Assembly (NCBI RefSeq): GCF_963921235.1
Contig: NC_086097.1
Location: forward strand, 72,356,001-72,420,000
Direction of reading: 5' to 3'
DNA: 64,000 bases
From: Mobula hypostoma
Taxonomy: Eukaryota
The notes below the pieces were generated by a model. It ran no database searches. It was not told the DNA's origin and worked only from the letters and a program-made list of their open reading frames with translations. Of this stretch, positions 3,241-48,182 are shown piece after piece; within the stretch, counting starts at the first letter, position 1; each line of letters begins with the position of its first letter. The translations under genes were made by a program, and so were the position numbers.

Positions 3241-5721
3241 TGTTGAGTTTTCTGGGACTCTGAGAAATCAGTTTTAAACAATCAAGACTCACAACATTAG
3301 TATATTTAAACAGATGACTGTGTTTGCAGAGCAGGTTAGTTGTCCCCTTTACGCGTCGCCCCCGTTAAAACTGGAATTACACACTTTCAAAGACTGAATG
3401 TTGGCATACCAATCAAGATATGTGGCCAGGGCCGAATACTAGTGGTCAGCCTCTAAGGTACACGTTAAGCGTACAGTCAATGCGGTATACTAAAAATATC
3501 AAAATACGCCCCATCTTCATGACGAAAAAAAACATGATAGGTAAAATTCAGCGGGATGGGTATTTCAGAGTTGTAACGAGGCTTATTGATATAGACTACC
3601 GGCTAACATTGTAGCGGAGCCAGCGGTGATTAAAACCACATTCCGACCACAAATGTGCTGCAGAATCCCGAGCTGATTGTTGTTTGCACTAATTGTGAGT
3701 TCCTTTAGACCCCAGATTCAGCTGTGAACGGCACACCAATAAGCATCCCAGGTTGTGAGGATGACGACCAATAATACCAGAGTATTTCTCGCCCTCTAGA
3801 TTGTTTTCTACAAATTTTATTTTCAGGCTATTACTGGGATACCTAAAATACAAACTGCCTGTTTTTTCATGACAAACCCAGTCTGGGTTACCTGCGAAAA
3901 AATTTACGAAACTATTCCGTAAGTTTCGAGATATTTCACTTTCCGAAAAATGCCAGCATTTGGTTTAAGCATAACCGCTAGATATATAAAATATTTATGT
4001 AAAAGTCATGCAATAGCCTGCTTTTTCACATTGTTATTCATGCCTCGTACTGTTATTTATATTGTTTATAAATGTTTTGGTTTGTGGTTCCTACAGTCAA
4101 GCCGGAAACTTAATAATCAGATGAGAGTAGTAAAATGCGATGTAATGCAAAAGATCTTGAATTGGTGGATTTTGTTTTGAGATTAACTGTACTTTCATGG
4201 ATTTTAAAGGCCATTCAATTCCCCTTAAAACTTAATGGTGAACACAGCCATAAGATATTCAGGCAGAAAAGAGCGGGAATCGACTACTGTTTATCTCCAA
4301 TTTGTTCAGTTTTGTTTTGCAATTTACGTTGAAACTGATGTTATTAACTAAAATATTTCTAAATAATTTATAACAGTATATGGCAATACATTACATGGGT
4401 CAAATGCATTTATATAGAAACAAGCCAACGCACACTTTTACAGTGTTCACCAACTTTTAGTAAAGCGATCGAAATTGGGTGAACAACAACAAACAACTGG
4501 GTGATGTTACTATAATAAATAACGCCACCAACAACAACATATAGCTTATGTTATATACGAGCAAACGCTTTAGAAAACATTTGGGAGACTATTAAGGGTT
4601 CTGTACATTAACTTGGAGGTGTCTAATTAAATTGATTCACTTTTATATAAAAAGGCAAAACTGCAGTTTGTCAGCATTGCCTACCTTTTAGTATCTGATT
4701 TGCAAATAAATCATCCAATGGAAAACCCCTTCTTTCCATCCATTTTATCATAATTGTCTAAATCTCCCATTTTTACAGGACTCCTCATAATACATTTACA
4801 TAGACGTCAATCGCCTTCGTTGTCCGAGTCGCTACTCAGTTTTATTTGCAAAACTATTGCAATATTTATCATTTTTCAGCAGCGCAAGTGCACCTTTCTC
4901 TCAAATTATGCAAGATGTTAGATCAAACTGTATAACTGATGAGCATTTCTTTTGGTCTTCAAACCTGTTCGTTGCTTGATACTACTTGTTTCAGCGAACG
5001 ACCAAATAAACGAGAATTATCGATGATGTGCTATTTGGAATACTCAAACACTGAAGGTTCTTCTTTTTATTATTCTTGTGATCATAACAAGTTGCGTTTA
5101 TTAACACTGCGATTTCAGCTATTTCTGAGAACTGCAAATAACTAAACTGCTTTGCATTTGAGAGGGATGAAACAGCGAGCTGAATTAGGGAAGGAACGCG
5201 ATTAGAGCTTCGTGGTACCCCTCTCGCACCGCATCCTCCGGCACTACGGTTCACCCTGACTGGTATGCCAGACACGCGCTCCGGTACCCCCGGGAAGCGG
5301 GGCCCGTTACGCGCGCTCCAGCACGTAAAGAGGCTGGGCTGTGTCTTAGCACTGAGTGCACAGGAGAGGCAGGTGGCGGTCACTACCATAACATGAACAC
5401 CAGTCAGGGCTTATCTCTCTTTCTTTTCAACCAAATAAAAGCAATGAAATAGAGCCCGGCGAAGATTAGAAACACCGATGCAAGGATAAGGGGCTTTAAA
5501 TTGGGTGATACTATCTTGCTCTAGTATTTTGCGACTTGTGCGTACACACATCGCGAAAGGGAGAATTGATGCACCGTGCACAGTGACAGGCAACTCCCGT
5601 CGGCAGCGCTGCGCTCACGCGTGGGCGCGCACACATCGCGGCGCTCCGACTCCGGCGGCTCACCCCGCACCCGGCGGGGGCTGGGGGAAAGGTGGGTGTG
5701 GGAACGCCGACTGGCGATTCG

Positions 5722-5745
5722 ATTGGTCGGCCGGCGCTTGCCAAT
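5722..5745. promoter_or_regulatory. Pair of oppositely oriented CCAAT boxes (candidate NF-Y sites)
   Basis: ATTGG at 5722-5726 and CCAAT at 5741-5745 inside the CpG island, ~470 bp upstream of the ATG. Confidence 0.5.
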
Positions 5746-5923
5746 CAATGTCGCCGGGTAATTGAGCGTAGTGTTAGATTGCGTTCGCCATTGTGAGAGT
5801 GAGAGGCCGCGCGCGTATTCGCGCGGGAGCGAGGAGGTAGCTGCGTTTGCTTGAGCTGAGTGACCTCTGACCCTCTTCCCCCCCCTCCGCCTCCGCTGAA
5901 AGCGGGCAGCTGCAACGCTGACA

Positions 5924-5983
5924 ATGAGCGGAGCGGCACCGAGCGCGGCACTAGCAGCAGCTTTACCATTAGTATTAGACTAG
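5924..5983 (+). CDS. Candidate upstream ORF in the NOVA1 5' leader (MSGAAPSAALAAALPLVLD*)
   Basis: ATG at 5924 with A at -3, 19 codons, TAG at 5981-5983. It only applies if the TSS lies upstream of 5924, which the sequence alone cannot show. Confidence 0.4.
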   Translation: MSGAAPSAALAAALPLVLD

Positions 5984-5998
5984 GAGCCCCGTGCATTG

Positions 5999-6116
5999 CC
6001 ACATATCTCTTACACTCACTCACTCACTCACCCACCCACCCTCTTTGCCTCTCATTCACACCCTCCTTCCCTTCTCTCTCACTCCTCATCCCTTCCCTCC
6101 CTCACACTTCATCCAT
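5999..6116 (+). promoter_or_regulatory. Dense YCAY cluster in the presumed 5' UTR
   Basis: 14 YCAY tetramers counted in 118 nt, including (TCAC)4 at 6016-6031. YCAY clusters are the known NOVA binding motif. Confidence 0.55.
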
Positions 6117-6208
6117 TCCCCCCCTTTTCTTGTACCTTTACAAATATCTTCTATAATTACCTTCTCACCGTATTTTCTGCAGCCACACACACACACAAAC
6201 AAAACAAC

Positions 6209-6344
6209 ATGATGGCGGCAGCACCCATCCAGCAGAACGGGACCCACACGGGGGTTCCTATAGACTTGGATCCCCCCGACTCGAGAAAGCGGCCGCTCGA
6301 AGCGCCTCCTGAAGCTGGCAACACCAAGAGAACAAACACTGGCG
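6209..6344 (+). CDS. NOVA1: RNA-binding protein Nova-1, coding exon 1
   Basis: Translates as MMAAAPIQQNGTHTGVPIDLDPPDSRKRPLEAPPEAGNTKRTNTG plus 1 nt, recognisable as the NOVA1 N-terminus. 136 nt, followed by a GTGGGT donor at 6345. Confidence 0.97.
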
Positions 6345-7648
6345 GTGGGTATCTCCATTTATTCTCCTTCTGCGTCGCCCCCTCCCCCAAAAATCCCTTG
6401 GAAAAATGGCGTCTGTTTTGTTCGCAACATATTAAAATTGTAATTTTTGGGGAAAGAAGACATACCCTCGGTATTGATATCTTGCCTTTCATTCCTGGAT
6501 GACATGAATCAGTGGCAGAGCTCTGGTGGCCATGAACTGGCAAGAACTGCTACGATTTGGATTGTGGGCTGACTAGCGGTTTTAAAGGAGTCCACTTTCC
6601 ATCGTTTATTGCATATTAGCAGTAGGGCGCAAGTAGGGGAAAAGGGATTGCGTGGTTATTCGCCTTTTTGGGGGTTAGCGAGATGGTTGTGTATTTGCGA
6701 GTTGCAGACTCCGTAATGATTAACACCGTATAATTTAGTTGTAGGGGAAATTAGCTGTTTTGTTCCAAGAGTGCGAAGAATCTTGACGTGTGTGATGTTT
6801 CTTGGGCATACGTTCTCGTTATTTTTTGTGACTGACAGTGTTACCTGTGTAACAACGAAGTAGTTGGATAGAGCTGGCAGAGGCTTGAAATTAAGTGATA
6901 CTTAAAAGGATCTACTTTTACTTAAAGGATTTTACTTAAATGAGCTTAAAAGGATCACTGCTCTCTTAAGAAATCTGGGATTGTGCTGCCTCGTATCTGT
7001 GTTGTGGTAACATATCATTGTTGGGGATCAGATATAGAACCTGACTAAGTTCGGGAGAGAGGGATGCTAATCTTTCTTACACAGGGATGGTTCATTGATT
7101 CACGTGTTGTTGTTAATTATGTTCGTATCTTGTGTCTAAAAGTAAACAAACAATAAGAAATCATTAGGAGGGCTGCTGAAGAGCGTTAGCCGGTTACACT
7201 GCGTTTATTTATTTACAGTGTTGTATGTGGAGATATTTAACTGCGCTGCACGCAAACAGCGCGGTTTTATAGGTCAATTACAAATTCACAGTCACCATGG
7301 AAACCAGGACTGTCATCATCTTCTGATACATTATTCAAAATCCTTCTAAACATGGGTACGCAGAGACACTCTTTCTCCCTCTGCATCACAAAATGTCATT
7401 TATTTTTGTGACGTTTAACATTGAGTAACTATTTTTGAAATGTTCAGTAGTTGCAAATTTAATAAAATATATTATATAGACTAAAATATTTATTTCTCTA
7501 CTAAACGCGATCATTTTCTTCAAAATTACCAATATACTAATTTATGATTACTCCGTTTTGCACCGGAATCCAGGGCATAGATTTGGGGGAAATCTGTTTG
7601 CCCTTTTATCTCCGACTTTGCAATAATCTATTCGTTTTCCTTTTGCAG
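6345..7648 (+). other. NOVA1: NOVA1 intron 1 (phase 1, 1304 bp)
   Basis: GT...TTTTCCTTTTGCAG. Joining the exons restores the codon G|AA (Glu) in frame. Confidence 0.93.
7291..7304. promoter_or_regulatory. RFX X-box-like motif in intron 1
   Basis: GTCACCATGGAAAC is a near-palindromic match to the X-box GTTGCCATGGCAAC. Confidence 0.45.
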
Positions 7649-7792
7649 AAGACGGCCAGTATTTTTTAAAAGTCCTTATACCTAGCTATGCTGCCGGATC
7701 TATTATTGGAAAAGGAGGACAAACCATTGTCCAACTGCAAAAAGAGACTGGTGCAACGATCAAACTGTCCAAATCCAAAGATTTCTACCCAG
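7649..7792 (+). CDS. NOVA1: RNA-binding protein Nova-1, coding exon 2 (N-terminal part of KH1)
   Basis: Translates as (E)[47 protein letters not shown](G), with the KH GXXG loop. 144 nt, AG acceptor, GTAGGT donor at 7793. Confidence 0.97.
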
Positions 7793-8973
7793 GTAGGTGA
7801 AAGCGAGTTCAGAGATAATAATTGACAGCAGAGCAAAAGGTTCCCCCAAATCATCGGACGATGTAATAAGAACATTTAAAGCGTGTTGTTCGGGAAGTGT
7901 AAGTAAGGTATTTTGCCTTCAGTCTACACTGTCAATGAAATTCTGTTGTAGTCTTCTGGTATGACATTTGAAGTATGTGTATTTGGCTCTAGTTATTCAC
8001 CCATCCTCTTTAGCTGTTGAATTATGTTTCTGAATATGCCTATCCACCCTTCCCTGAAGATGGTTAAACGCGTGGGGGTGGGAGGGGGCAGGTGATAAAT
8101 CTGTGTCTTTATTGCATTTATCAAATACATGTCGCCCGTGCTAATCACCCCCCCCCCGTAATAATTATCAGAACTTAGCTATTGCACAGTTGTGCCTGAA
8201 AACAACTTTTGTTCTGGAAGAAATTGTAAAAAAAAAACTCTCTGAGCTTGTCTGATGATGATTATGACGAATAACATTGCCAACACTCTTAGGTTCTGGT
8301 TTGGTAAAGACTGGTGTTGGGTGTCCGATTTAGTTCTGTCATTCATTTGGCTTTGGGATTGTGGCTGAGGTGAAACGAGCTAAATTAGAAACCAGTGGCT
8401 TAATGACAAAATAAAAGATTACTGCTCTTCGTAAGCAAGCTGACTGAGAGTCCAGAGTTGCGTCCAATGGAATGAATGAATTCTGAGATCGAGATGGGAC
8501 AGCTGGTGTGACGCTGCAGTCGAGCAATTGGGGCATTTTATTTCTCGGTGACATTAACTGGGTGAGAGAACAGACACGTTTCACTAGACCCAATTCATGA
8601 ATGCTGTACAAACTACTTACCGTGTGGCTTTTCACCCTCGGTTGTTGTCAAATCGAGGCAGGCGCTCTATAATAAAATAATACCGGACTGCCGTCAAGTT
8701 GCAAGCGCCCATTCCTAAATAGAATGATTTTGACAACTGGAAACAGAGCTTCGTTCTGATTATATTATCTTATGCGATGTAGAAAGGTTTCAGGTTTATG
8801 CGATTTAATGTTTGAATTGCAAAGAATCGTTTTCTCTTCAGGCCCAGGGAGATCCATTTCATACCTACCATCACAAACGAGGCGAATACCACTTTGTGAT
8901 TGTGTTATGTTTGTGTGTTTGATTTCCACCTTTCTTTCAAGCTTCATGAACAGACCCCTGTTGCACCCCCCCC

Positions 8974-9001
8974 CACACACACACACACACACACCACACA
9001 C

Positions 9002-19360: not shown

Positions 19361-20242
19361 CGTTTGGTTTATTTGCTACACTCATTACTGAAAAATGAAT
19401 CCTTCCAAGTAATAATGGACTGGTAATGACGAATGACATTTTCCAAACCCTTCCAATTCCCTTTCTTTGCCTCTAGTAATATGACATTTGTAGTATATAG
19501 CTGTGGTGTTTAACTGTCTTAGTTAAATAGGCATTCATTTTACTACTGATCTTGTAAGGCATCATGAACATAGGAGCAAAAGAAATAAAGCAGGAGGTAG
19601 CCATTCGGTTTCAAGATTGCCTTGCTATTCATTAACCTCATGGATGATCGCCTACTTTGGCACCATTTTCCTGCCCTGCCCTGCATGCTGTAGCTGCATG
19701 TTAACTTTCAATAATTTGTTTACAATAACACCCATGTCCCTTTGAAGATGAATATTTTTCAATTTCTTACCTTTTAAATCATACGCTTAAAGCAAGATTT
19801 GTCTTTTCTCTATCAAATTGGATTGCCTTGCATTTTTCTATATTTTTCTTTAGTGGTCATGTTGCTGCTTTCTCATTAAGTTTGTCTATATCCCCTTGAA
19901 GTCTCCTAGCTATTTAGGTGACCTATATTTCTATCCCTATTCAGCCTCACCCCCTCCAGCTCTTTCACTGTGTAATAGTCAGGCTAAATCCTGGTAAAAT
20001 GAAGTGTTTGTTTTTCACTATTCTGTGGTTGCTTATTGTTTTACATTAGGTTGAATTGAGTACCATTCTTTGTTATTGACACTGGGTTGAAAAGTACATG
20101 TTTTAACATTGTTGCTTGTACCAAATATTAACATGGTGTCTAACTGCTGGAAAAATACAATGCAACCACTTGAGTGAAAAATGTAATGGAAATGAGAAGA
20201 TAAATAACGTTAACAACAGGAATTCTGCAGATGCTGGAAATT

Positions 20243-20841
20243 CAAGCAACACACATCAAAGTTGCTGGTGAACGCAGCAGGCCAGGCAGCATCTATAGGA
20301 AGAAGCGCAGTCGACGTTTCAGGCCGAGACCCTTCGTCAGGACTAACTGAAGGAAGAGTGAGTAAGGGATTTGAAAGCTGGAGGGGGAGGGGGAGATGCA
20401 AAATGATAGGAGAAGACAGGAGGGGGAGGGATGGAGCCGAGAGCTGGACAGGTGATAGGCAGAAGGGGATACGAGAGGATCATGGGACAGGAGGTCCGGG
20501 AAGAAAGACGGGGGGGGGGGACCCAGAGGATGGGCAAGAGGTATATTCAGAGGGACAGAGGGAGAAAAAGGAGAGTGAGAGAAAGAATGTGTGCATTAAA
20601 AAGAGTAACAGATGGGGTACGAGGGGGAGGTGGGGCCTAGCGGAAGTTAGAGAAGTCAATGTTCATGCCATCAGGTTGGAGGCTACCCATACGGAATATA
20701 AGGTGTTGTTCCTCCAACCTGAGTGTGGCTTCATCTTTACAGTAGAGGAGGCCGTGGATAGACATGTCAGAATGGGAATGGGATGTGGAATTAAAATGTG
20801 TGGCCACTGGGAGATCCTGCTTTCTCTGGCGGACAGAGCGT
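20243..20841 (-). repeat. 3' pseudo-LTR of the PLE (endonuclease C-terminus plus 3' UTR)
   Basis: Near-identical reverse complement of 23273-23872. It is followed by a 31-nt tail (20212-20242) that the other copy lacks. Confidence 0.95.
20309..20344 (-). ncRNA. Minimal type I hammerhead ribozyme motif (sense to the PLE ORF)
   Basis: The minus strand reads AGUC-CUGACGA-AGG(GUCUCGG)CCU-GAAA-CGUC^-GACU. It has stem I AGUC/GACU, an intact CUGANGA and GAAA core, a palindromic ACGU stem III and a GUC cleavage triplet. Confidence 0.85.
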
Positions 20842-21017
20842 AGATGTTCAGCAAAGCGGTCTCCCAGTCTACGTCGGGTCTCACCAATATATAAAAGGCC
20901 ACATCGGGAGCACCGGACACAGTATATCACCCCAGTCGACTCACAGGTGAAGTGATGCCTCACCTGGAAGGACTGTTTGGGGCCCTGAATGGTGGTAAGG
21001 GAGGAAGTGTAAGGGCA
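20637..21017 (-). pseudogene. PLE GIY-YIG endonuclease domain (out of frame with RT)
   Basis: CPYTSSLTTIQGPKQSFQVRHHFTCESTGVIYCVRCSRCGLLYIGETRRRLGDRFAEHLR...VATHFN...GMNIDF*. It has the VIY/YIG motifs and the CxxC/His residues typical of PLE endonucleases. Confidence 0.92.
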
Positions 21018-23272
21018 TTGTTCCGCTTACACAGATAAGTGCCAGGAGGGAGATCAGTGGGGAGGGATGGGGGGGACGAATGGACAAGGGAGTTGTGTAG
21101 GGAGCGATCCCTGCGGAATGTAGAGAGAGGGGGGGAGGGAAAGATATGTTTAGTGGTGGGATCCCGTTGGAGGTGGCGGAAGTTACGGAGAATAATATGT
21201 TGGACCCGGAGGCTGGTGGGGTGGTAGGTGAGGACCAGGGGAACCCTATTCCTAGTGGGGTGGTGGGAGGATGGAGTGAGAGCAGATGTACGTGAAATGG
21301 GGGAGATGCGTTTAAGAGCAGAGTTGATAGTGGAGGAAGGGAAGCCCCTTTCTTTAAAAAATGAAGACATCTCCTTCGTCCTAGAATGAAAAGCCTCATC
21401 CTGAGAGCAGATGCGGCGGAGACGGAGGAATTGCGAGAAGGGGATGGCGTTTTTGCAAGAGACAGGGTGAGAAGAGGAATAGTCCAGATAGTTGTGAGAG
21501 TCAGTAGGCTTATAGTAGACATCAGTGGATAAGCTGTCTCCAGAGACAGAGACAGAAAGATCTAGAAAGGGGAGGGAGGTGTCAGAAATGGACCAGGTAA
21601 ACTTGAGGGCAGGGTGAAAGTTGGAGGCAAAGTTAATAAAGTCAACGAGTTCTGCATGCGTGCAGGAAGCAGCGCCAATGCAGTCGTCGATGTAGCGAAG
21701 GAAAAGTGGGGGACAGATACCAGAATAGGCACGGAACATAGATTGTTCCACAAACCCAACAAAAAGGCAGGCATAGCTAGGACCCATACGGGTGCCCATA
21801 GCTACACCTTTAGTTTGGAGGAAATGGGAGGAGCAAAAGGAGAAATTATTAAGAGTAAGGACTAATTCTGCTAGACGGAGCAGAGTGGTGGTAGAGGGGA
21901 ACTGATTAGGTCTGGAATCCAAAAAGAAGCGTAGAGCTTTGAGACCTTCCTGATGGGGGATGGAAGTATATAGGGACTGGACATCCAAGGTGAAAATAAA
22001 GCGGTGGGGGCCAGGGAACTTAAAATCATCGAAAAGTTTAAGAGCGTAAGAAGTGTCACGAACATAGGTCGGAAGGGATTGAACAAGGGGTGATAAAACA
22101 GTGTCGAGGTATGCAGAAACGAGTTCGGTGGGGCAGGAGCAAGCTGAGACAATAGGTCGGCCAGGACAGGCAGGTTTGTGGATCTTGGGTAGGAGGTAGA
22201 AACGGGAAGTGCGGGGTGTGGGAACTATAAGGTTGGTAGCAGTGGATGGGAGATCCCCTGAGCGGATAAAGTCGTTGATAGTGTGGGAGACAATGGCTTG
22301 GTGCTCCTTAGTGGGGTCACGATCAAGGGGTAAATAAGAGGAGGTATCCGCGAGTTGTCGCTGTGCCTCGGCAAGGTAGAGGTCAGTACGCCAGACTACA
22401 ACAGCACCCCCCTTATCAGCGGGTTTAATAATAATGTTAGGATTAGTGCGGAGGGAGTGGAGAGCAGAGCGTTCCGAAGGAGTGAGGTTGGAATGGGGAC
22501 AAGGTGCGGTGAAGTCGAGACGGTTGATGTCCCGTCGGCAGTTGGCAATAAAGAGATCCAGAGCAGGCAGAAGACCAGAGCGGGGTGTCCATGAAGAAGA
22601 GGAGGGATGAAGACGGGAGAAGGGGTCATCGGTGGGGGTGGAAGAGTCCTTGCCGAAGAAGTAGGCTCGGAGACGGAGACGGCGGAAGAAAAGTTCCGCA
22701 TCATGGCGAACACGGAACTCGCTGAGGTGTGGGCGAAGGGGGACAAACGTGAGGCCCTTACTGAGAACAGAGCGTTCTGCCTCCGACAGTTGAAGGTCGG
22801 AGGGGATGGTAAAGACCCGGCACGGATGAGAGCTGGGATCAGAGGGGGGAGGGGGGAGGCTGGGGGTGTCAATGGAGAGGGGAGGGTTGGGGTGAGAGGA
22901 AGATGGAGCCTCTGAGGGCCCAGGAGCTGACGGTGGGATCTGAGGAAGACGGGGCTGCGGAGTGGTGGTGGGGGAAGGGGAGACGGGAGTCACAACAGCA
23001 GCACATAAAGACCCGGCCTGGAGTTCAAGGCTGGAGTCGCAGTTGGTGGTTGCGCGATCGCTTTGAATGTCTCCATGGTCGTTGCTGGAGTCCGGGTTTT
23101 GAATATGTCCTGAGGTGTTGGAGCCGCCGAGACCAACGGCAGGGGCCGCAACCGAAAGTTCATGCCTGCTAGCGTCGGGGCCGGCAGGCTCTGGAGTCCG
23201 TAGATGTAAGATCTTGCGATCTTTGCCTAACATGAGAAAGTCAAAGAAACGGCGATTGCAGGCGTGGATTGC
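21018..23272 (-). pseudogene. PLE reverse transcriptase (open for ~750 codons, 5'-truncated)
   Basis: Part of ORF 20960..23329. Motifs LSKGLTFVP, IKPADKGG, YLLPKIHK..PGRPIVS, LDVQSLYTSI, QTKGVAMGT..PSYA, RYIDD, LPFLD and DVYYKPT are diagnostic of PLE RTs. Confidence 0.95.
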
Positions 23273-23872
23273 ACGCTCTGTCCGCCAGAGAAAGCAGGAT
23301 CTCCCAGTGGCCACACATTTTAATTCCACATCCCATTCCCATTCTGATATGTCTATCCACGGCCTCCTCTACTGTAAAGATGAAGCCACACTCAGGTTGG
23401 AGGAACAACACCTTATATTCCGTATGGGTAGCCTCCAACCTGATGGCATGAACATTGACTTCTCTAACTTCCGCTAGGCCCCACCTCCCCCTCGTACCCC
23501 ATCTGTTACTCTTTTTAATGCACACATTCTTTCTCTCACTCTCCTTTTTCTCCCTCTGTCCCTCTGAATATACCTCTTGCCCATCCTCTGGGTCACCCCC
23601 CCCCCGTCTTTCTTCCCGGACCTCCTGTCCCATGATCCTCTCGTATCCCCTTCTGCCTATCACCTGTCTAGCTCTCGGCTCCATCCCTCCCCCTCCTGTC
23701 TTCTCCTATCATTTTGCATCTCCCCCTCCCCCTCCAGCTTTCAAATCCCTTACTCACTCTTCCTTCAGTTAGTCCTGACGAAGGGTCTCGGCCTGAAACG
23801 TCGACTGCGCTTCTTCCTATAGATGCTGCCTGGCCTGCTGCGTTCACCAGCAACTTTGATGTGTGTTGCTTG
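23273..23872 (+). repeat. Inverted 5' pseudo-LTR of the PLE
   Basis: Reverse complement of 20243-20841. The ORF track shows the same peptide (RSVRQRKQDLPVATHFN...NIDFSNFR) on both strands. Confidence 0.95.
23771..23806 (+). ncRNA. Minimal type I hammerhead ribozyme motif (on the NOVA1 pre-mRNA strand)
   Basis: AGTC 23771-74, CTGACGA 23775-81, stem II 23782-94, GAAA 23795-98, CGTC with predicted cleavage after 23802, GACT 23803-06. Confidence 0.85.
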
Positions 23873-23886
23873 AGATAAATAACGTT

Positions 23887-24997
23887 TCTCCTTCAAAGAA
23901 TGGGGTTTCCCTTCCTCCACCATTGATGCTGTCTTCACCAGCATCTCCTCTATTTCCTGGATATCCAAGTTCATCCTATCTTCCTGCTGCCTTGACATGG
24001 ATAGAGTTCCTCTTGTCCTTGCCTACCACCCAATGAGCCTCCGCATCCAACACATCATTCTCTGTAACTTCCGCCACCTTCAACGGGATCCTACTACCGA
24101 ACACATCAAGCACATCTTTACCTCCCCTACCCTACTCTTTGCTTTCTGCAAGGGTCACTCTCTCCATGATTATCTTGTCTGTTCATTCCTCCCCACAAGC
24201 TCCTACCTGGTACATATTCCTGAAAGCGACAGAAATGATATGCCTACCCATTCACCTCCTGGCTTGCCTCTATTCAAGGCCCCAATCATTCCTTCCAGAT
24301 GAGGCAATATGTTACCTCTGAATCTGTTGGGGTCATCTATTGTGTATGGTGCTCCTGATGGAGCCTCCTCTATATTGGTGAGACCCAACGTAAATTGGGA
24401 GACCACTTTGTCGAGCTCCTCTGCTCTGTCTGCCAAATGCAGAGTTTCCGGTAGCCAACCATTTTGATTCCTATTCCCATTCCTGTTCCATGGTTGATAC
24501 ATACCCTCCTCTTTTGTCATGCTGAGGCTACTCTCAGGGTGGAGGAGCAACACCTGATATTCCATCTACGTAGCCTCCAATCTGATAGCATGAACATCGA
24601 TTTCTCCTTCTGGTAATTATTTTTTCCCTCTCCCCTTTCCCTCTTTTTCTATTCCCCACTCTGGCCTCTTACTACTTCTCCTCACCTACTAATCACCTTC
24701 CCCTGGTGCCCTTCCTTCTTCCTTTTCTCCCATGGTCTACTCTCCTCTCCTATCATATTCTTCCTTCTTCAGACCTTTACCTTTCCCACCCACCTATCTT
24801 CACCTATTATCTTCCTTCCTCTCCTCTGTTTTTTATTCTGACATCTTCTCTCTTACTTTCCAATCCTGAAGAGGGATCTCAGCCAAAAATATTGACTGTT
24901 TATTCATTTCCATTGATGCTGCCTGACCTGTTGAGTTCCTCCAGCATTCTGTGTGTGTTACTCTGGATTTCCAGCATCTGCAGAATCTCTTGTATTT
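23887..24997 (+). mobile_element. Older PLE 3' fragment (RT thumb, GIY-YIG, 3' UTR)
   Basis: DRVPLVLAYHPMSLRIQHIILCNFRHLQRDPTT and GVIYCVWC..LLYIGET remnants, a decayed hammerhead at ~24862-24897, and the terminus TTTCCAGCATCTGCAGAATCTCTTG. Confidence 0.9.
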
Positions 24998-28261: not shown

Positions 28262-28410
28262 GATTTCTAATTTTTCCTAGTTCTGATGGAAGGTCGCCAA
28301 CTTGAAACATTAACTTTTTCTCTTTCCACAGATGCTGCCTGACCTGATATTTCCAGCATTTTCTGGTTTTATTTCAAATTTCCAGCAACTGCAAATTTTT
28401 TGGTTTTGGA
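28262..28410 (+). mobile_element. Old PLE 3'-terminal fragment
   Basis: AGTTCTGATGGAAGGTCGCCAACTTGAAACATTAACT...CACAGATGCTGCCTGACCTG...TTCCAGCAACTGCA. Confidence 0.65.
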
Positions 28411-31218: not shown

Positions 31219-31233
31219 TGTAGGTTATTTGTT

Positions 31234-31592
31234 TCAGATCGAGACCCTTCGTCAGGACTAACTGAAGGAAGAGTTAGTAAGAGATTTGAGAGGGGGAAGG
31301 GGAGATCCAAAATGATAGGAGAAGACAGGAGGGGGAGGGATTGGGCCAAGAGCTGGACAGGTCTTGGCTCCATCCCTCCCCCCCGTCGTCTCCTATCATT
31401 TTGGATCTTCCTGTCCCCCTCCCACTTTCAAATCTCTTACTAACTCTTCCTTCAGTTAGTCCTGACAAAGGGTCTCGGCCTGAAACGTTGACTGTACCTC
31501 TTCCTAGAGATGCTGCCTGGCCTGCTGCGTTCACCAGCAACTTTGATGTGTGTTGCTTGAATTTCCAGCATCTGCAGAATTCCTGTTGTTTG
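31234..31592 (+). mobile_element. Non-coding PLE fold-back insertion (359 bp)
   Basis: Inverted arm ~31234-31355 against ~31362-31485, complete 3' terminus, 15-bp TSD TGTAGGTTATTTGTT at 31219-31233 and 31593-31607. The hammerhead at 31458-31493 has the core change CTGACAA and a GTT triplet. Confidence 0.92.
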
Positions 31593-31699: not shown

Positions 31700-34600
31700 A
31701 GAAACAGGATGATCTGGCAGATAAATATGTGGCTGAGAAGCTGGTGGAGGAGGCAGGACTTTAGGGTTTTGGATCATTGGCATCTCTTCTTGGGGAGGTA
31801 TGACCTATTCAAAAATGATGGGTTGCATCTGAACTCGAGTGGAAGAATATTCTCGCGGGCAGGTTTGTTAGAATTGTTGGAGAGGATTTAAACTAATTTG
31901 GCAGTGGGGTGGGAGTCAGAGTGGAGGGACTTGGGATGGGACAATGGTGAAAAAGCAAAGTTAACATGCAGTCAGATTGTTAGTAAAGGCAGGCAGATGG
32001 TGGGACAAAATTGCAGCCAGCAGGCTATCAGTGCAATAGGGATGCAGAATCAAAAAGGGGGTCAAATACAGTACTCAGTGTTATATCTTAATGCACTAAG
32101 AATAAGAAATAAGGTGGATGATCTTGTTGCACGATAACAGATTGTCAGGTATGATATTATCGCTGTGGCTGAAGTAAGGCTGTAGTTGGGAGCTGAATGT
32201 CCAAGGTTACACATTGCATCAGAGGAATAGGAAGGCAGGCAGAGGGGTGGCGTGGCTCTGCTGTTAAAGAATGGCATCAAATCAGTAGAAAGATGTGACA
32301 TAGGATTGGAAGATGTTGAATCCTTGAGGGTTGAGTTAAGAAACTTCAAGGATAAAACGACCCTGATGGCAGCTATATACAGGCCTCCCAACAGTAGCTA
32401 GGATGTGGACCTCAGATTACAACAGGAAATAGAACAGGTGTGTCAAAAGGACAATGTTATGATAATCATGGGATATTTCAACATGCAGATCGATTGGGGA
32501 ACATCGGGTTGGTAATGGATCTCAGATGAGTTTGTTGAATGCCTATGAGATGGCTTTATAGAGCAGCTTGTCATTCAGCCTACTAGGGTATCAGTGATAC
32601 TGGACTGGGTTTTATGTAATGAACCTGAGGCAATTAAGGAGCTTAAAGTAAAAGGACCCTTAGGAGGTCATGATCACAATATGATCAAATTCAACTTGAA
32701 ATTTGATAAGGAGAAAGTAAAGTCTGACTTAGCAGTATTTCAGTGGAGTAAAGGAAATTACAATGATATTAGAGAGGAGTTGGCCAAAGTAAGTTGGAAT
32801 GAGATGCTGACAGGGATGACAGCAGAACAACAATGGTGTGAGTTTCTGGGGAAAATGAGAAAGATACAGAATAGATGTATTCCAAAAACGAAGAAATACT
32901 GAAATGGCAAAATGATAAGGGAAGTCAAAGCTAATGTAAAAGCAAAAGACAGGACAGACAACAAAGCAAAATTAGCCGGAAGATAGACAATTGAGAAGGT
33001 TTTAAAAACCTACAGAGAACAATTAAAAGAATAATTTGCAGGGAAAAGATGAAATATGAAAGCAAGCTAGCAAACAATATCAAAGTAGATAGTAAAAACT
33101 ACTTTGAGAATGCAAACAAAAATAAGACAGATGAGAGTGGATATCGGACTGCTAGAAAATGAGGCCAAAGAAATAATAACTGGGGACAAGGAGATAGCAG
33201 ATGAGTATTTTGAGTATCTTGCATCAGTTTTCACGGTGGAAGGTACTAGCAGTGTGCCAGACATTGAATGGTGTGAGGGAAGAGAAGTGAGTGCAATTAC
33301 AATTACAAGGGAGAAAGTGCCCAAAAACTGAAAGACCTAAGAGTACAAAAGTCACCCTAGTGTTCTGTAAGAGGTAGTGGTAGAGATTATGGAGGCATTA
33401 GTAATGATCTTTCAAAAATCATTGGTCTCTGGAATGGTGCCAGTGGACTGGGAAATTGCAAATTTTACTCCACTCTTTAAGAAAGGGGGAAGGCAGCAGG
33501 AAAGAAATTATAGACCAGTTAGCCTGATCTCAGTGGTTGGGAAGAGTTGGAGTTAATTGTTAAGAATGAGGTTGTGGTGTACTTCGTGACACTGGACAAG
33601 ATGGGATAAAGTCAGCATGGTTACCTTAAAGAAAATCTTGCCTGACGAATCTGTTGGAATTCTTTGAGGAGATTACAAATAGGATAGATAAAGGGGATGT
33701 ACTGGGTGTTGTATGTTTAGACTTTCAGAAGGCCTTTGACAAAGTGCCACTTGTGAAGCTGCTTACAAAGTTAAGAGCCCATGGTATTACAGGAAAGCTA
33801 CTGGGGTTATACCGTTGGCTGATTGGTAGGAGGTAGTGAGTGGGAATACGAGGATCCTTTCTTGGTTGGCTGCCAGTGACCAGTGGTGTTCTGCAGGGGT
33901 CAGTGCTGGAACCACTTCGTTTTATGCTGTATATCAATGATTGAGATGATGGAGTAGATGGTTTTGTTGCCAAGTTTGCAGATGATACAAAGATTGGTGG
34001 AGGGGCAGGTAGCGTTGAGGAAACAGGAAGGCTGCAGAAGGGCTTCGACAGATTACGAGAATGGACAAAAAAGTGGTAAATGAAATACAATGCATGGTCA
34101 TGCCCTTTGATAGTAGAAAGAAATGTGCAGAATATTTTCTAAACGGAAAGAAAATCTGAAAAATCTGAGATGCAAAGTGACCTGGGAATTCTTGTGCAGA
34201 ACACCCTAAAGGTTAACTTGCAAATTGAGTGGGAAGGCAAATACAATGTTAATATTCATTTCAAGAGGTCTAGAATACAAGAGCAGGGATGTGATGCTGA
34301 GGCTTTGTGAGGCACTGGTGAGGCCTCACCTTGCGTGTTGTGAACAGTTTTGGGCTCCTCATCTAAGGAAAGATGTGCTGGCATTGGAGACAGTGCAGAG
34401 GGGGGTTCACAGAGATGATTCTGAGAATGAAAGGGTTATCGTAGGAGGAATGTTTGATGGCTCTGAGTCTGTACTTGCTGGAACTTAGAAAGATGAGGGG
34501 TGATCTTATTGAAACCTTAGGAATGTGGAAGGGCCTAGACAGAGTAGATGTGGAAAGGATGTTTCCCATGGTGGGGGAGACAGGACAAAAGGGCATAGCC

Positions 34601-34880
34601 TCAGGATAGAGAGGTGCCCATTTAAAACAGAGATGCAGAGAAGCTTCTTTAGCCAGATTGTGGTGAATTTGTGGAATTTGTCACCACAGGCAGCTGTGGA
34701 AGCCTGGTCATTGGGCTTATTTAAGGCAGAGATTGATAGGTTCTTGATTGACCATGGGATTGAAGGTTACAGGGAGAAGGTCAGGGAATGGGGCTGAGGA
34801 GGGGGGAAAAATGATTCAGCCAGGACTGAATGGCGGAGCAGACTTAATGGGCCAGATTCTGCTCCTATGTCTTATGGTCT
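31700..34880 (+). mobile_element. CR1-type LINE, long decayed copy (ORF1 esterase end, APE and RT)
   Basis: ORF1 SGNH-like DGLHLN, APE start SVLYLNALRIRNK and ILDWVLCNE, RT LDFQKAFDKVP / KFADDTK, and a 3' tail CTCCTATGTCTTATGGTCT. Many stops. Confidence 0.92.
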
Positions 34881-35808
34881 CATTGAATTCCATAACAGAC
34901 TGAATGAGACACATCCAATATTCCAAAACTGCCTATGCATTCTGCCATGGTATGCAGCAAAAGAATTAGCAGATTTTTGCTTTTAGGGAAATATAGTAGG
35001 CACTGTTTGTGGGAGGGGTGCAGGGTGGTGAGTTGGGCTATGCTGTTGAGACGTAGAAGTTGCCAAGACAAATTGTGGAAATGGATACTTGATTTCTACT
35101 TCTCACATTTTGTACAACATTTACTCTTCGTCTGTGATTAGGATACCACATGCTATGCTCAGAATCAGAATCGGGTTTATTATCACTGGCATGTGTCATG
35201 AAATTTGTTAACTTAGCAGCAGCAGTTCAATACAATACATAATATAGAAGAAAAAAAATAAATGAATCAATTACAGTATATATATATATTGAATAGATTA
35301 AAACTCATGCAAAAACAGAAATATACATTTAAAAAATGAGGTTGTATTCAAGGGTTCAATGTCCATTTAAGAATGCAATGGCAGAGGAGAAGAAGCTGTT
35401 CCTGAATCGCTGAGAGTATGCCTTTAGGCTTCTGTACCTCCTACCTGATGGTAACAGTGAGAAAAGGGGATGCCCTGGGAGCTGGAGGTCCTTAATAATG
35501 GACAGTATCTTTTTGAGACGCTGCTCCTTGAAGATGTCCTGGGTACTTTATAGGCTAGTACCCAAGATGGAGCCTACTAAATTTACTTTCAGTCCTGTGC
35601 AGTAGCCCCCCCCACCCAATACCAGACAGTGATGCAGCCTGTTAGAATGATCTCCACGGTACATCTATAGAAGTTTTAGAGTGTTCTTGTTGACATACCA
35701 AATCTCTTCAAACTCCTAATGAAGTATCGTCACCGTCTTGCCTTCTTTATAGCTGCATCGATATGTTGGGACCAGGTTAGGTCCTCGGAGATCTTGACAC
35801 CCAGGAAC

Positions 35809-36408
35809 GTTCCGTGCACCAGCCACTCTCTGAGTAAAAAAACCTTCCTCTAACATCCCCCTTGAACTTCCCACCCCTTACCTTAAAGCCATGTCCTCTT
35901 GTATTGAGCAGTGGTGCCCTGGGGAAGAGGCGCTGGCTATCCACTCTATCTATTCCTCTTATTATCTTGTACACCTCTATCATGTCTCTTCTCATCCTCC
36001 TTCTCTCCAAAGAGTAAAGTCCTAGCTCCCTTAATCTCTGATCATAATGCATACTTTCTAAACCAGGCAGCAATCTAGTAAATCTCCTCTGTACCCTTTC
36101 CAATGCTTCCACATCCTTCCTATAGTGAGGTGACCAGAACTGGACACAGTACTCCAAGTGTGGCCTAACCAGAGTTTTATAGAGCTGCATCATTACATCG
36201 CGGCTCTTAAACTCTATCCCTCGACTTATGAAAGCTAACACCCCATAAGCTTTCTTAACTACCGTATCCACCTGTGAGGCAACTTTCAGGGATCTGTGGA
36301 CATGTACCCCGATATCCCCCTGCTCCTCCACACTACCAACTATCCTGCCATTTACTTTGTACTCTGCCTTGGAGTTTGTCTTTCCAAAGTGTACAACCTC
36401 ACACTTCT
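35809..36408 (-). mobile_element. CR1-type LINE internal fragment lacking its 3' tail
   Basis: ORF 35777..36502: CEVVHFG...LYKTLVRPHLEYCVQFWSPHYRKDVEALERVQRRFTR...TRGHGFKVRGG. Confidence 0.9.
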
Positions 36409-36765
36409 CCGGGGGATAGATAGAGTTGACGTGGATAGGCTTTTTCCATTGAGAGTGGGGGAGATTCAAACAAGAGGACATGAGTTGAGCGTTAAAGGGC
36501 AAAAGTTTAGGGGTAACATGAGGGGGAACTTCTTTACTCAGAGAGTGGTGGCTGTGTGGAACGAGCTTCCAGCAGAAGTGGTTGAGGCAGGTTCGATGTT
36601 GTCATTTAAAGTTAAATTGGACAGCTATATGGACAGGAAAGGAATGGAGGGTTATGGGCTGAGTGCAGGTCGGTGGGACTAGGTGAGAGTAAGAGTTCGG
36701 CACAGACTAGAGGGGCCAAGATGGCCTGTTTCTGTGCTGTAATTGTTATATGGTTATATATGGTT
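36409..36765 (+). mobile_element. CR1-type LINE 3' end of a different subfamily
   Basis: RGIDRVDVDRLFPLRVGEIQTRGH...FFTQRVVAVWNELP, ending in a (TATATGGT)-like tail. Confidence 0.9.
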
Positions 36766-37112
36766 AACTTGAAACTGTTCACTCTCTCCACTTCTGATCC
36801 CTCTATGGGGATTGGTATGTGTTCCTTTGTTTTACCCTTCCTGAAGTCCACAATCAGCTCTTTTGTCTTACTGACATTGAGTGTCAGGTTGTTGCTGTGG
36901 CACCACTCCACTAGTTGGCATATCTCACTCCTGTACGCCCTCTCGTGACCACCTGATATTCTGCTGACAATGGTTGTATCATCAGCAAATTCGTACAGTA
37001 GATGGTATTTGAGCTATGCCTAGCTACATGGTCATGTGCATATAGAGCAAGGGGCTAAGCACACACCCCTGAGGTGTACCAGTGTTGATCGTCAGCGAGG
37101 AGGAGATATTAT

Positions 37113-38722
37113 AAGACCATAAGATAAGGAGCAGAAGTAGACCATTTGGCCCATCGAGTCTGCTCCGCCATTCAATCATAGGTTGATCCAATTCTTCCAG
37201 TCATCCCAACTCCCCTGCCTTCTCCCCATACCCTTTGATGCCCTGGCTAATCAAGAACCTATCTATCTCTGTCTTGAATGCACCCAACAAATTCCACAGA
37301 TTTACCGCCCTCTGATTAAAGAAATCTCTTCGCATCTCAGTTCTAAATTGACAACCTTCAATCCTGAAGTCATGCCCTCTTGTCCTAGAATCCTCGACCA
37401 TGGGAAATAACTTTGTCATATCTAATCTGGTTCAGGCCCTTTAACATTCGGAATGTTTCTATGAGGTTCCCCTTCATTCTTCTGAACTCCAGGGAATACA
37501 GTCCAAGAGCTGTCAGATGTTCCTTATATGGTAACCATTTCATTCCTGGAATCATTCTTGCGAATCCTCTCTGAACCCTCTCCAATGTCAGTATATCCTT
37601 TCTAAAATAAGAAGCCCAAAACTGCACACAATACTCCAAGTGTGGTCTCACAAGTGCCTTATAGAGCCTCAACACCACATCCCTGGTCTTATATTCTATA
37701 CCTCTAGAAATGAATGCCAACATTGCATTCTCCTTCTTCGCCACCGACTCAATCCTAAGGGTTAACTTTTAGGGTATCCTTCACAAGGACTCCCAAGGCC
37801 CTTTGCATCTCTGCATTTTGAATTCCCTCTCCGTCTAAGTAATAGTCTGCCTGTTTATTTCTTCCACCAAAGTGCATGACCAGACACTTTCCAATATTGT
37901 ACGCATTTCATTTGCCACTTCTTTGTCCATTCCCCTAAACTCTTAAGTCTCTCTGCCGGCTTTCTGTTTCCTCAACACTACCCGCTCCTTCACCTATCTT
38001 TGTACCATCGGCAAATTTAGCCACAAATCCATTAATACCGTAGTCCAAATCACTGACATACATCGTAAAAAGCAGTGGTCCCAACACTGACCCCTGTGGA
38101 ACTCCACTGGTAACCAGCAGCCAGCCAGAATAGGATCCCTTTATTCCCAATCTCTGTTTCCTGCCAATCAGTCGATGCTCCACCCATGCTAGTAACGTTC
38201 CTGTAATTCCATGGGCTCTTATCTTGCTAAGCAGCCTCCTGTACAGCACCTTGTTAAAGGCCTTCTGAAAATCCAAGTACACTGCATCCACTGCATCTCC
38301 TTTGTCTACCCTGCTTGTAATTTCCTCAAAAAATTGCAGTAGGTTAGTCAGGCAGGATTTTCCTTTCAGGAAACCATGCTGGCTTTGGCCTATCTTGTTA
38401 TGTGCCTCCAGGTACTCCGTAATTTCATTCCTAACTATCGATTCCAACAACTTTCCAACCACTGATGTCAGGCTAACAGGTCTATAGTTTCCTTTCTGCT
38501 GCCTCCCACCCTTCTTAAATAGCGGAGTAACATTTGCAATTTTCCAGTCATCCGGTACAATGCCAGAATCTTTCAGATCATTGTTAATGCCTCCGCAATC
38601 TCTCCAGCTACTTCCTTCAGAACCTGAGGTTGCATTCCATCAGAGCCAGGAGATTTATCCACCTTCAGACCACTAAGCTTCCTGAGCACCTTCTCAGTCA
38701 TAATTTTCATTGCGCATACTTC
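37113..38722 (-). mobile_element. CR1-type LINE, 5'-truncated
   Basis: AAGACCATAAGA tail at left. RT motifs YLDFQKAFNKV, SGVPQGSVLGP, KFADGTK and LYKALVRPHLEYC. Confidence 0.92.
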
Positions 38723-42999: not shown

Positions 43000-45005
43000 A
43001 GAGAGTGTCTGTCAGGAAGGTAAAAGTATTAATAATATTAGTGCACATAAATGTACAGGGCTTGACAGGATTTATCACAGAATTCTAAGGTAAGCAATGA
43101 ACGCGACTGATAGGGGGCTGGAAATTTTTGCTTCTTTGTTAGCCAGGGGTGAGGTGGTAGAAGACTAAAGGTTAGTTAATGTTGTCCCCTTGTTCAAAAA
43201 CTACAATAGGGATAAGTTTGGAAACTACACGCAGTGAGCCCCATATCACAGAAGCTGATGAATCTGAGGGTGAGGATTTATGTTCGCATAGAAAGGTAGG
43301 AGTCAGCATGGTTTTGGATAGGGAGAGTATTCCTCATTAATCTGATTTTGTTTTTTGAGAAGGCAACTAAGAAAATTGATGAAGGCAGAGCCGAAGCCAT
43401 GTTTTTACATGGCCTTTGTTGTGGCTTGTGACAAGGTCCCAACTGATACAGTGGTACAGAAGATTAAAGCACAGGGATCCGACTAAATCCATAAGACCAT
43501 AGGAGTAGAGTTAGGCTATTTGGCCTATCAAGTCTGCTTTACCATCCCATCATGACTGTTTATTATCCCTCTCAGCCCCATTCTCCCGCCTTCTCATCAT
43601 AGTCTTTGATGCCCTAATAATCTAGAGCCTATTAACCTCTGCTTTAAATATACCCAATGACTTGGCCTCCACAGTCATCCGTGGCAATGAATTCCACAGA
43701 TTCACCACCCGCTATTCTCAGGCTGTCCCCTCTTGTCCTAGACTCCCCCACTACAGGATACACCCTCATCACACACACTCTATCTAGGCCTTTCAATATT
43801 TGATTGGATTCTGTGAAATCCCCATCATTCTTCTGAACTCCAGTGAGTCAGGCCCAGAGCTATCAAATGCTCCTCATGCATTAACCTTTTCATTCCCAGA
43901 ATAATAGTCATGAACCTCCTCTGGACCCTCTCCAATGCCAGCATATCTTTTCTTAGATAAGGGGCCCACAACTGCTCACAATACTCTAAGGGCATTCTGA
44001 CCTGTTGTCTTATAAAGCCTCACCATTACAAACTAGCTTAGTAATAAGAATCAAAGGGTAGTGTTGGATTGACGTTTTTTTGACTGGAAGGCTGTAGAAA
44101 GTGGTGCTGGGACCTTTGTAAAATATGTAAATGACTTGGATGAGAGTGCAAGTGGTATGATTAGGAAGTAGGCAGACAACTTGGTGCCTACAAATTGGTG
44201 AATTTGTAAATAGTGAAGCAAATTTTCTAAGGGTACTGCAGAACATGAATCAGCTGGAAATTCGTGTGAAGCAGTACCAGATGAAACTTAATCCAAACAA
44301 ATTGGGTAAAGGGGAGTGTAATGTACTTTAAGAAGTCAGATTCCTTTAGGACATATGGAGTAATGGCAGGGACCTTAGGAGTCATTGACATATAAAGAGA
44401 ACTTGGGGTGCAAGTTTATAGCTTGCTGAAAGTGGCACACAGTTGGATAAGGTAGCAAAGACAGTATTGAGTATAAGAGTTAAGAGATTGTGTTGCAGCT
44501 TACAAAGTATAGGTTAGAACTGATTTGGAGTATTGTGGCCAGAGCTGTACATTGCAGGAAGGATGTGGTAGCAAAAGAGACAGTGAGAAGAGATGAAACA
44601 GGATATTGCTTGAAATAGATAGTTGATGTTATAAGGAGAGATTGGATAGCCTAGCTGTATTCTTGCTGGAATGTAAGAGAGTGAGGTGTGATCTCATAGA
44701 GGGGCATAGATAGGATAGATTGGGAATGGATTCTAACAGGGCAGGGGTATCTAGCATTAGAAAGAATAGGTTTAAGTTGATAGGGAAATTCAGAGGAATA
44801 CTTTAAATTTAAATCAGGTTGGTATTTATCTGGAACAAGCTGGGGGTGGTAGAGGCAGATACAGTTATAACATTTGGAAGTCATTGGACGGGTGCTTCAA
44901 TGGAATGTGGGATTAATGCCTGCGACTACTGTGAAGAGGTATCATTATCAGCATAAATAAGGTGTGTTGAAAGGTCCTGTTTCTGTGCTGCAAATTTCTA
45001 TGATT
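43000..45005 (+). mobile_element. Old CR1-type LINE with a nested minus-strand CR1 3' end (~43490-44025)
   Basis: RT remnants (NVVPLFK, SQHGF, DKVP) and a 3' end CCTGTTTCTGTGCTG. The nested piece starts with the CATAAGACCATAGGAG tail. Confidence 0.75.
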
Positions 45006-46643: not shown

Positions 46644-47531
46644 ATAGAAACATAGAAAACCTACAGCATAATACAGGCCGTTCAGCCCACAAAGCTGTGC
46701 CGAACATATCCTTGCCTTAGAAGTGACCTAAAGTTACCCATAGCCCTCTATTTTTCTAAGCTCCATTTACCCATCCAGGAGTCTCTTAAAAGACCCGATT
46801 GTATCTGCCCCCACCACCGTTGCCAGCAGCCCATTCCACGCACTCAGCACTCTCTGCGTAAAAAAAAAACAACAACTTAGCCCTGACATCTCCTCTGTAC
46901 CTACATCCAAGCACCTTAAAACTGTACCCTCTCTTGCTTGCCATTTGAGCCCTGGGGAAAAAACCTCTGACTATCCACACGGTTAATGCCTCTCATCATC
47001 TTATACACCTCTATCAGGTCACCTCTCAACCTCCATCGCTCCAAGGAGAAAAGACCAAGTTCACTCAACCTATTCTCATAAGGCATGCTCCCCAATCCAG
47101 GCAATATCCTTGTAAGTCTCTTCTGCACCCTTTCTATGGTTTCCACACCCTTCCTGTAGTGAGGCGACCAGAACTGAGCACTGTACTCCAAGTGGGGTCT
47201 GACCAGGGTCCAACATTACCTCTCGGCTCTTACATATGCCTTCTTAACCACAGAGTCAATCTGCACTTCAGCTTTGAGTGTCCTATGGACTCAGACCTCA
47301 AGATCCCTCTGATCCTCCACACTGCCAAGAGTCTTACCATTCATACTATATTCTGCCATCATATTTGACCTACCAAAATGAACCACCTCACACTTACCTG
47401 GGTTGAACTCCATCTGCCACTTCTCAGCCCAGTTTTGCATCCTATCAATGACCCGCTGTAGCCTCTGACAGCCCTCCACACTATCCACAACACCCCCAAC
47501 CTTTGTGTCATCAGCAAATTTACTAACCCAG
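46644..47531 (-). mobile_element. CR1-type LINE 3' fragment
   Basis: ATAGAAACATAGAAA tail. SKFADDTKVGG...KWQMEFNPGKCEVVHFG and EYSAQFWSPHYRK. Confidence 0.9.
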
Positions 47532-48006
47532 TTCAAGGTAGTTGACAACAGCTTCTCAATGGCAATTTGAGATGGGTAATAAATTCTGGACTTGCCAGCT
47601 GCATACACATTCTGTGTATAGCTCTTTATTTTTAAAAAAAAATCACAAGGTTTTGCCTGGTCGCACCTTGGTGGTAAATTGTAACAATCGAGAAACGGTT
47701 TTGATTGTTGGAAGGATTCAGGAGCAAAGAATTGGAAGACCGTTGCAAATTTTACAGTTATTGTTGAAATGTGGACACTAAGTCTACTTGGCAGTAGGCC
47801 TTTCTCTAGTGGGTTGCAAATGTCTGTGAAAGTGCTGCTTTGAGTCTCCTCAGGTAGGGGTTCTCCAACATTTCAAGGGTGATTGTTTTGTTTTCATTCG
47901 TGTAAAATGCTGCAGTTTTTGTAAAAAAAAGAGAAATTTTTATTGTTGCTATAGTTTCTCTACTTGATGTTTTTCTTTACCCTGAGATCCAAGGCAAGTA
48001 ATACAT

Positions 48007-48182
48007 TAACACGAGGAAATCTGCAGATGCTGGAATTTCAAGCAACACACATAAAAGTTGCTGGTGAACACAGCAGGCCAGGCAGCAGGAAGAGGTACAG
48101 TCGACATTTCGGGCCGAAACGTCGACTGTACCTCTTCCTGCTGCCTGGCCTGCTGCGTTCACCAGTAATTTTCATGTGTGTT
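48007..48182 (-). mobile_element. 176-bp palindromic PLE-terminus insertion
   Basis: Two inverted arms meet at GTCGACATTTCGGGCCGAAACGTCGAC, inside hammerhead stem II. 13-bp TSD GCAAGTAATACAT at 47994-48006 and 48183-48195. Only the left arm has the ~30-nt tail. Confidence 0.92.

Follow-up and report, generated by a model that had tools for sequence, protein, structure and literature searches.

The hammerhead motif and the insertion that carries it

The window, the whole 64-kb stretch of DNA that was analysed, contained a hammerhead motif on the minus strand at 20309-20344, where the preliminary description had placed it. The motif lay within a single insertion of a Penelope-like element (PLE) at 20212-23872, with a 14-bp target-site duplication on both sides. 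The features of the insertion are listed below; signed positions are counted from the predicted cut, and the negative coordinates used for tandem repeats and markers are one base off from those of the end maps.

20198..20211 (no strand): target-site duplication, left copy, 14 bp.
20212..20312 (minus): PLE tail, +1 to +101 after the cut, with two copy-end sites (about +65 and +102); leader of the next ORF in tandem copies.
20309..20344 (minus): the hammerhead motif, minimal and of type I, made up of stem I (AGUC/GACU), the core CUGACGA at 20340-20334, an additional A at 20333, stem II (GGGU-CUCG-GCCU), GAAA and the ACGU palindrome; cleavage predicted between 20313 and 20312.
20345..20636 (minus): pyrimidine-rich spacer from the ORF stop to the hammerhead, resembling an intron in the older subfamilies; the present subfamily has no donor GT.
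20637..21026 (minus): GIY-YIG endonuclease coding part, out of frame with RT in this copy; a 1043-aa frame is intact in locus L033.
20960..23272 (minus): RT coding part, 5'-truncated, lacking roughly 550 nt at its start, counted from the upstream cut site, and with no upstream tandem pLTR.
23273..23872 (plus): inverted 5' arm of about 600 bp, a second copy of the element 3' end, 99-100% identical, with a short tail (+71).
23771..23806 (plus): identical hammerhead motif in the inverted arm.
23873..23886 (no strand): target-site duplication, right copy, 14 bp.

Along the minus strand, from 20344 to 20309, the parts of the motif followed one another as AGUC, CUGACGA, A, GGGU, CUCG, GCCU, GAAA and CGUC, with GACU directly after the predicted cut, and every letter of the hammerhead core (CUGANGA ... 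GAAA ... UH) was in place. Stems I and II were of 4 bp each, the latter including two G·U pairs, and stem III was the loopless palindrome ACGU, for which helix III is possible only as a dimer. Positions within the motif follow the standard hammerhead numbering scheme. The extra nucleotide between A9 and 10.1, the A at 20333, was the same in 12 of 12 aligned rows. After it, stem II closed with G10.1·U11.1 (or A-U, in a shifted register) in place of the usual G-C, a one-sided change that kept the pairing; C was present at 11.1 in 9 of 16 older copies, and the pair was G-C in 11 of 11 distant rows. G10.1-C11.1 is given as typical of the matches in PMC4209133, where it stands outside the descriptor.

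The covariance models of Rfam 15 gave no hammerhead match, either at the gathering score or at E values up to 10, and the motif, with no loop III and no loop I/II contacts, lies outside the canonical Rfam hammerheads. A loose core pattern matched the window four times, against 0.96 expected (1 of 100 shuffles reached four), a test that is weak taken alone because all four matches were copies of the same element. Judged by its letters, the motif belongs with the published minimal type I hammerheads of PLEs, an ordinary identification in a motif class that has been in print since 2014. It shares with the minimal PLE hammerheads described in PMC4209133 the type I topology, the full core, the extra base between A9 and 10.1, the palindromic 15.2-16.2, the absence of loop III, the short stem I, the pLTR position and mass dispersal as single truncated copies; it differs from them in G10.1·U11.1, in a stem II of only 4 bp and in having a sister subfamily with A6C.

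The preliminary description had named this class, with all core nucleotides, the AGUC...GACU layout and a palindromic, loopless ACGU stem III that implies a dimer, and the minus-strand letters, including the extra A, bear it out. The motif had also been placed about 100 nt from the element 3' end and in sense to the RT; the element ended at 20212, 101 nt past the predicted cut, and the RT/GIY-YIG ORF was on the same strand. The location in a 3' UTR stood in part: the motif lies behind the ORF, but in tandem loci these 100 nt after the cut lead into a further ORF, with its first in-frame ATG some 139 nt downstream of the cut. A 16-codon upstream ORF (window 20243-20293, minus strand) starts 20 nt past the cut and precedes the main ATG in tandem copies. 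A cis dimer between the insertion's two motifs was ruled out, since the motif at 23771..23806 is on the opposite strand and has no cis partner in one transcript.

The intact 1043-aa single ORF of L033 encoded an RT with a DKG motif plus GIY-YIG at the C terminus, with CKRNKCYTC (CX4CxxC) as the linker between RT and endonuclease (EN). Its profile matches were RVT_1 (E 3e-5; 24.3 bits, below the cut-off of 29.6) and GIY-YIG (E 0.001), and the GIY-YIG piece in the window scored 24.4 bits, above the cut-off. Tandem loci had a coding unit of 3,513 bp with the motif in the pLTR, and the features of EN+ PLEs were found: partial tandem pLTRs, an inverted 5' arm and the optional 30-40 bp tail. A CX2-5CxxC linker between RT and EN is described in PMC8557442 as marking the Neptune and Nematis clades. 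The element is a young PLE, taken as Neptune-type from a linker that Neptune and Nematis share. It has in common with Neptune-type EN+ PLEs (PMC8557442, PMC3846280) the single ORF with RT, DKG motif, Cys linker and C-terminal GIY-YIG, together with partial tandems, the inverted 5' arm, a tail on one arm and the target-site duplication. The closest protein relative with a name was from Chiloscyllium punctatum (71%); further relatives, including marine-invertebrate ones, were at 43-57%. These matches point to a cartilaginous fish as the probable host.

The exact 32-base motif up to the cut was present in 35,656 copies in the 3.48-Gb genome (reversed control, 0), and a slightly relaxed pattern gave 50,694 matches; the latter figure, from one pattern, exceeds the 4,000-9,000 given for coelacanth and Xenopus in PMC4209133. 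The closest genomic copies of the element were 98-100% identical. Within the window, short copies of the element end, some 90% identical and in part of fold-back form, were observed at 31231-31590, 48002-48191 and 62801-63023, and decayed older-subfamily PLE copies with eroded hammerheads at 23885-24972 (plus strand), 28278-28346, 54711-54867, 58786-58909 and 61249-61307; the young insertion directly adjoins one of these decayed copies. A second repeat family (60-80% identity, short ORF remnants) was located at 33400-38640, 43487-44005, 46955-47209, 52065-52722 and 59758-60960. At L033 (270-361 region) and L035 (4553-4740), copies sat inside the tail or ORF of others, in nested and tail-to-tail arrangements.

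No paper was found on this PLE family, nor any report from cartilaginous fish, on the A6C form or on edited PLE copies; the motif may be present in the supplements of PMC4209133 and 10.64898/2026.07.22.740005 or in Repbase. The non-LTR retrozymes of 10.64898/2026.07.22.740005, for which one chondrichthyan was sampled, carry a type I hammerhead related to that of PLE pLTRs, but they are short non-coding tandem repeats, whereas the motif here is in a 3.5-kb coding unit.

Conservation of the fold and the A6C subfamily

Among 80 metagenome loci with PLE proteins (33-63% identity), the descriptor found 15 motifs in 13 loci, against none in 20 shuffles. When 11 distant rows were aligned with the window, the core was invariant, N7 was free, the extra A was kept and most stem positions showed three or four pair types; C3, U4, G5, G8, A9 and G12-A14 were the letters that did not vary in relatives at 33-63% protein identity. 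Stem III of the 12 aligned rows was ACGU in eight, AGCU in one, ACCGGU in two and ACGCGU in one, the palindrome being part of the descriptor filter for this alignment; a core-only search free of the filter gave palindromes in 7 of 8. The count of 90/96 paired cells in the same alignment was also partly built into the filter and was not used as a test.

The core-only search was the stronger test because it avoids the circularity of the descriptor filter. A core was found 100-215 nt behind the ORF in 8 of 24 distant loci, from four families, with about 0.9 expected (background 7 in 79,804 nt; three further loci were too short and were left out), and the other 16 of the 24 had no core behind the ORF. 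All eight had 3/3 pairs in stem II; stem I had 3/3 in seven and 2/3 in one. Within this genome, the 36-mer had a mean identity of 80% in older subfamilies compared to 20% for the 13 nt upstream, a value that is low partly because many copies start there, and 37% for the 10 nt downstream; 16 of 30 older loci reached the motif. No two-sided covariation was seen among the subfamilies of this genome, where the only change was C/U at 11.1. Since distant PLE relatives share the fold with changed stems, these alignments indicate that the hammerhead fold is under selection. The preliminary description had looked to conservation and covariation of the core and stems across subfamilies, and these were present across distant PLEs, in both the descriptor set (15 motifs in 13/80 loci) and the core-only set (8/24).

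In 9 of the 16 older copies that reached the motif, out of 30 examined, the core read CUGC, which is the A6C change. This older subfamily (CUGCYGA; L192-L203) was widely amplified, its pattern having 2,917 exact genomic matches. A natural A6C hammerhead from phage is reported to have a kobs of less than 0.1 per min (PMC3088659). With at least 2,917 A6C copies, full catalysis may therefore not be needed at all; on the sequences, the impaired core did not stop amplification, unless the protein of other elements moved the A6C copies.

The A6C copies favour an alternative in which cleavage has no role in this lineage, the fold being kept as the 5' boundary of the template, as a protein or splicing signal, or as a passenger. 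The G·U at 10.1-11.1 of the young subfamily points in the same direction, as do the Naiad PLEs, which thrive without hammerheads according to PMC8557442. A mere landmark, however, need not keep its catalytic letters, and these were invariant while N7 was free; A6C, moreover, reduces cutting but does not abolish it. We regard this alternative as unlikely.

Where the genomic copies begin and end

On the 3' side, 34,964 of the 35,656 copies (98.1%) ran past the predicted cut, and 3' ends clustered at about +65 and +102. The first 30 copies on contig C1 ended at +63 to +76 in 17 cases and at +101 to +115 in 13; none ended at the cut. Thirty of 30 rows chosen by the endonuclease region (two of them one locus, and one the window itself) passed the cut, the shortest reaching +18. 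Head-to-head pairs had one short and one long end in 20 of 21 cases, in an analysis restricted to ends beyond the cut and hence informative on the two peaks but not on a lack of ends at the cut itself. An optional PLE tail of 30-40 bp is described in PMC3846280 and PMC8557442; by analogy, the ends at about +65 and +102 likely represent this tail and two starts of reverse transcription.

On the 5' side, 6,934 of 7,271 copies (95.4%) crossed the predicted cut, a loss of 4.6% over 7 nt. Among 30 rows chosen by the ORF start, 28 extended upstream of the cut (5 to the locus edge), two began at +41 and +115, and none began at +1. Thirteen of the first 30 copies on contig C1 began between -32 and -71, and the next at -283. 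From G5 onward there were 45,444 matches, from the stem I A 35,656, and from a point six bases beyond it 28,574; the two 6-nt extensions at stem I thus retained 78.5% and 80.1% of copies, losses of about 21% and 20%. When 47 rows were inspected, mostly those among the first 100 listed that failed the longer patterns, 39 were true starts, from -26 to -38, and 8 were point changes. The peak of starts at stem I was broad, with its centre near -30 to -33, and contained both tail lengths. This clustering is also in favour of the fold as a landmark. About four in ten core-holding copies (as in L284-L318 and L132-L161) had their start in a 12-nt stretch around stem I's 5' edge, and many of these were tiny fold-back insertions.

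The 5' edge of stem I coincided with a YAG after a pyrimidine tract, which resembles a splice acceptor. In several older copies the intron-like spacer (window 20345-20640; L173:1265-1452; L040, L063 and L105) carried a GT where the ORF stops and a YAG at stem I, and the young subfamily had no donor GT. A similar acceptor-like site is found at the 5' end of helix I in the Drosophila virilis Penelope hammerhead (PMC4209133, PMC2377424); splicing was shown for that element, whereas here it is suggested by sequence only. No GT..AG joint was present among the 15 joints listed in each of two contig sets, whose RNA origin was guessed and which had 420 and 250 more. Short copies starting at stem I were considered as spliced forms joined to the ORF end and were rejected, the letters upstream being inverted arms or unrelated flank.

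These ends bear on the proposal of the preliminary description that cleavage frees a defined 3' piece of about 100 nt or cuts monomers from tandem transcripts, taken here with such linear monomers as the templates. The core is intact, the distance from the cut to the element end is 101 nt and one older copy, L051, aligns from +1, as the proposal would have it. Linear cut monomers would, however, give copies that end at the cut or start at +1, and neither kind was seen (0/30 in each set); the tail is furthermore needed on the template, because copies begin in the tail. With nearly all copies continuing past the cut on both sides, neither the release of a defined 3' piece nor the copying of cut monomers was upheld, and we consider the proposal very improbable. 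A cleavage product that was never copied would not be visible in the genome.

The copied template and the possible place of cleavage

Copies run through the cut and stop some 65 or 102 bases further on, and the reverse-transcribed RNA was therefore likely uncut. The explanation that we prefer, with moderate confidence, is that any cutting by the ribozyme is likely slow, takes place as a dimer or together with the element protein, and affects RNA that does not serve as template.

The MFE structure of the monomer was a rod in which the core GACG paired with CGUC (-10.0 kcal/mol, compared to -6.0 for a hammerhead-like fold), and the computed active double hammerhead was at -8.9 compared to -28.3 for the best co-fold of two monomers, energies that ignore core contacts and stacking energy. 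Neither the motif fold (z -0.37) nor the tail hairpin (z -0.48) was more stable than shuffles. The computed energies would fit the low activity described in PMC4209133, where the PLE hammerhead monomer was inactive and the dimer weak, and in the review PMC6765202.

For the PLE hammerhead of Anolis, it is reported in PMC11167929 that cutting occurred only with protein, that mutants inserted normally in vitro and that no reads ended at the cut. This element, Poseidon PAc of Anolis carolinensis, resembles the present one in that its hammerhead lies where pLTR and ORF join, that no ends fall at the cut and that copies end at two sites downstream of it, spaced by about 35 nt, two-site initiation here being read from genomic ends. 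It differs in belonging to the Poseidon clade and in having its start codon inside the hammerhead, whereas here the ATG lies well past the cut and the linker is CX4CxxC.

The tandem copies place the motif where the pLTR meets the ORF. As PMC11167929 and the end maps suggest, the element protein would bind the tail and start cDNA at two internal sites, and an inverted insertion would represent one internal start site per arm. By the end counts, copies cross the cut site and frequently end at the 5' edge of stem I, probably because the RT stops there. The monomer would be an inactive rod, and cutting would need two RNAs paired through ACGU, probably helped by a dimeric protein. Such a cut would part the tail from the upstream ORF and take that RNA out of the template pool; the same cut would give the downstream unit a defined 5' end.

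The repeats of 36 tandem pairs differed by 0.44% upstream of -211 (1.08% between loci), by 0.96% from -194 to -36 (1.08% between loci) and by 0.45% from -35 to +60, around the cut (1.22% between loci). In the middle interval, equivalent to window 20348-20506, the repeats often differed by older-subfamily letters, with both flanks homogenised; inverted pairs within the youngest subfamily did not show this divergence. Five lineage markers (-830, -745, -379, +9 and +61) agreed in 30 of 31 informative cases. At L101 and L120, the upstream and downstream repeats differed on both sides of the upstream cut and shared variants further up, a pattern that fits one continuous uncut template there, with gene conversion or assembly error as alternatives.

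Clusters of A>G changes were found at two loci. L120 (contig C9:135637900-135644400) had 19 A>G common to both repeats and 36 in the longer, with no T>C. L113 (contig C40:72293700-72300200) had 14-17 A>G in each of three repeats, 12 of them common to the tandem pair and 15 common to the downstream repeat and the inverted arm. Across 169 copies from 90 loci, none besides these had more than 4 A>G or more than 6 T>C. We infer from these clusters A-to-I (ADAR-like) editing of a sense template that would have been copied more than once, now or in the parent.

Read-through would also be expected from a circle that had been cut and religated, which counts against the preferred explanation. In this model, taken from PMC4209133, two hammerheads in a tandem transcript excise the 3.5-kb unit, which becomes a circle, and the RT, starting from the tail and running more than one round, restores the junction. 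The model accounts for read-through, for more-than-unit copies with scattered 5' starts, for repeats being closer within loci than between them on either side of the divergent interval, and for the same 19 A>G in both repeats of L120. A circle would, however, give identical repeats, contrary to the divergence from -194 to -36, and the differences on both sides of the cut at L101 and L120 would not come from a religated circle. A homology-guided template jump explains the shared changes without a cut, and the A6C subfamily also spread. We consider the circle rather improbable.

Three further points stand against the preferred explanation: the modelled active double hammerhead is far less stable than the best co-fold, the A6C subfamily spread, and 16 of the 24 distant loci were without the core. 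An uncut template with cleavage on a side path is nevertheless ranked first, followed in turn by the fold as landmark or passenger, the religated circle and the mechanism of the preliminary description.

It is possible, if doubtful, that the fold of the hammerhead, and not its cut, serves as the boundary mark of the copied RNA. cDNAs with the long and with the short tail both stop at stem I's 5' edge, the acceptor-like site, the A6C subfamily spread, and the ADAR-type marks may show that two-site priming and a template jump put copies of one sense RNA segment into the downstream and upstream repeats and into the inverted arm. If this were true, the genome would be a natural mutational and end-mapping record of PLE tandem and inverted ends built without ribozyme cleavage.

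The role of PLE hammerheads is still called unclear in PMC8557442, and a family with tens of thousands of young copies allows the question to be approached from genomic data. In the case of two insertions at least, the sense-strand A>G clusters argue against the antisense-template idea put forward in PMC3846280. The G·U closing pair and A6C are natural variants for assay. The genome record argues against cleavage making the template, in agreement with the one in vitro study.
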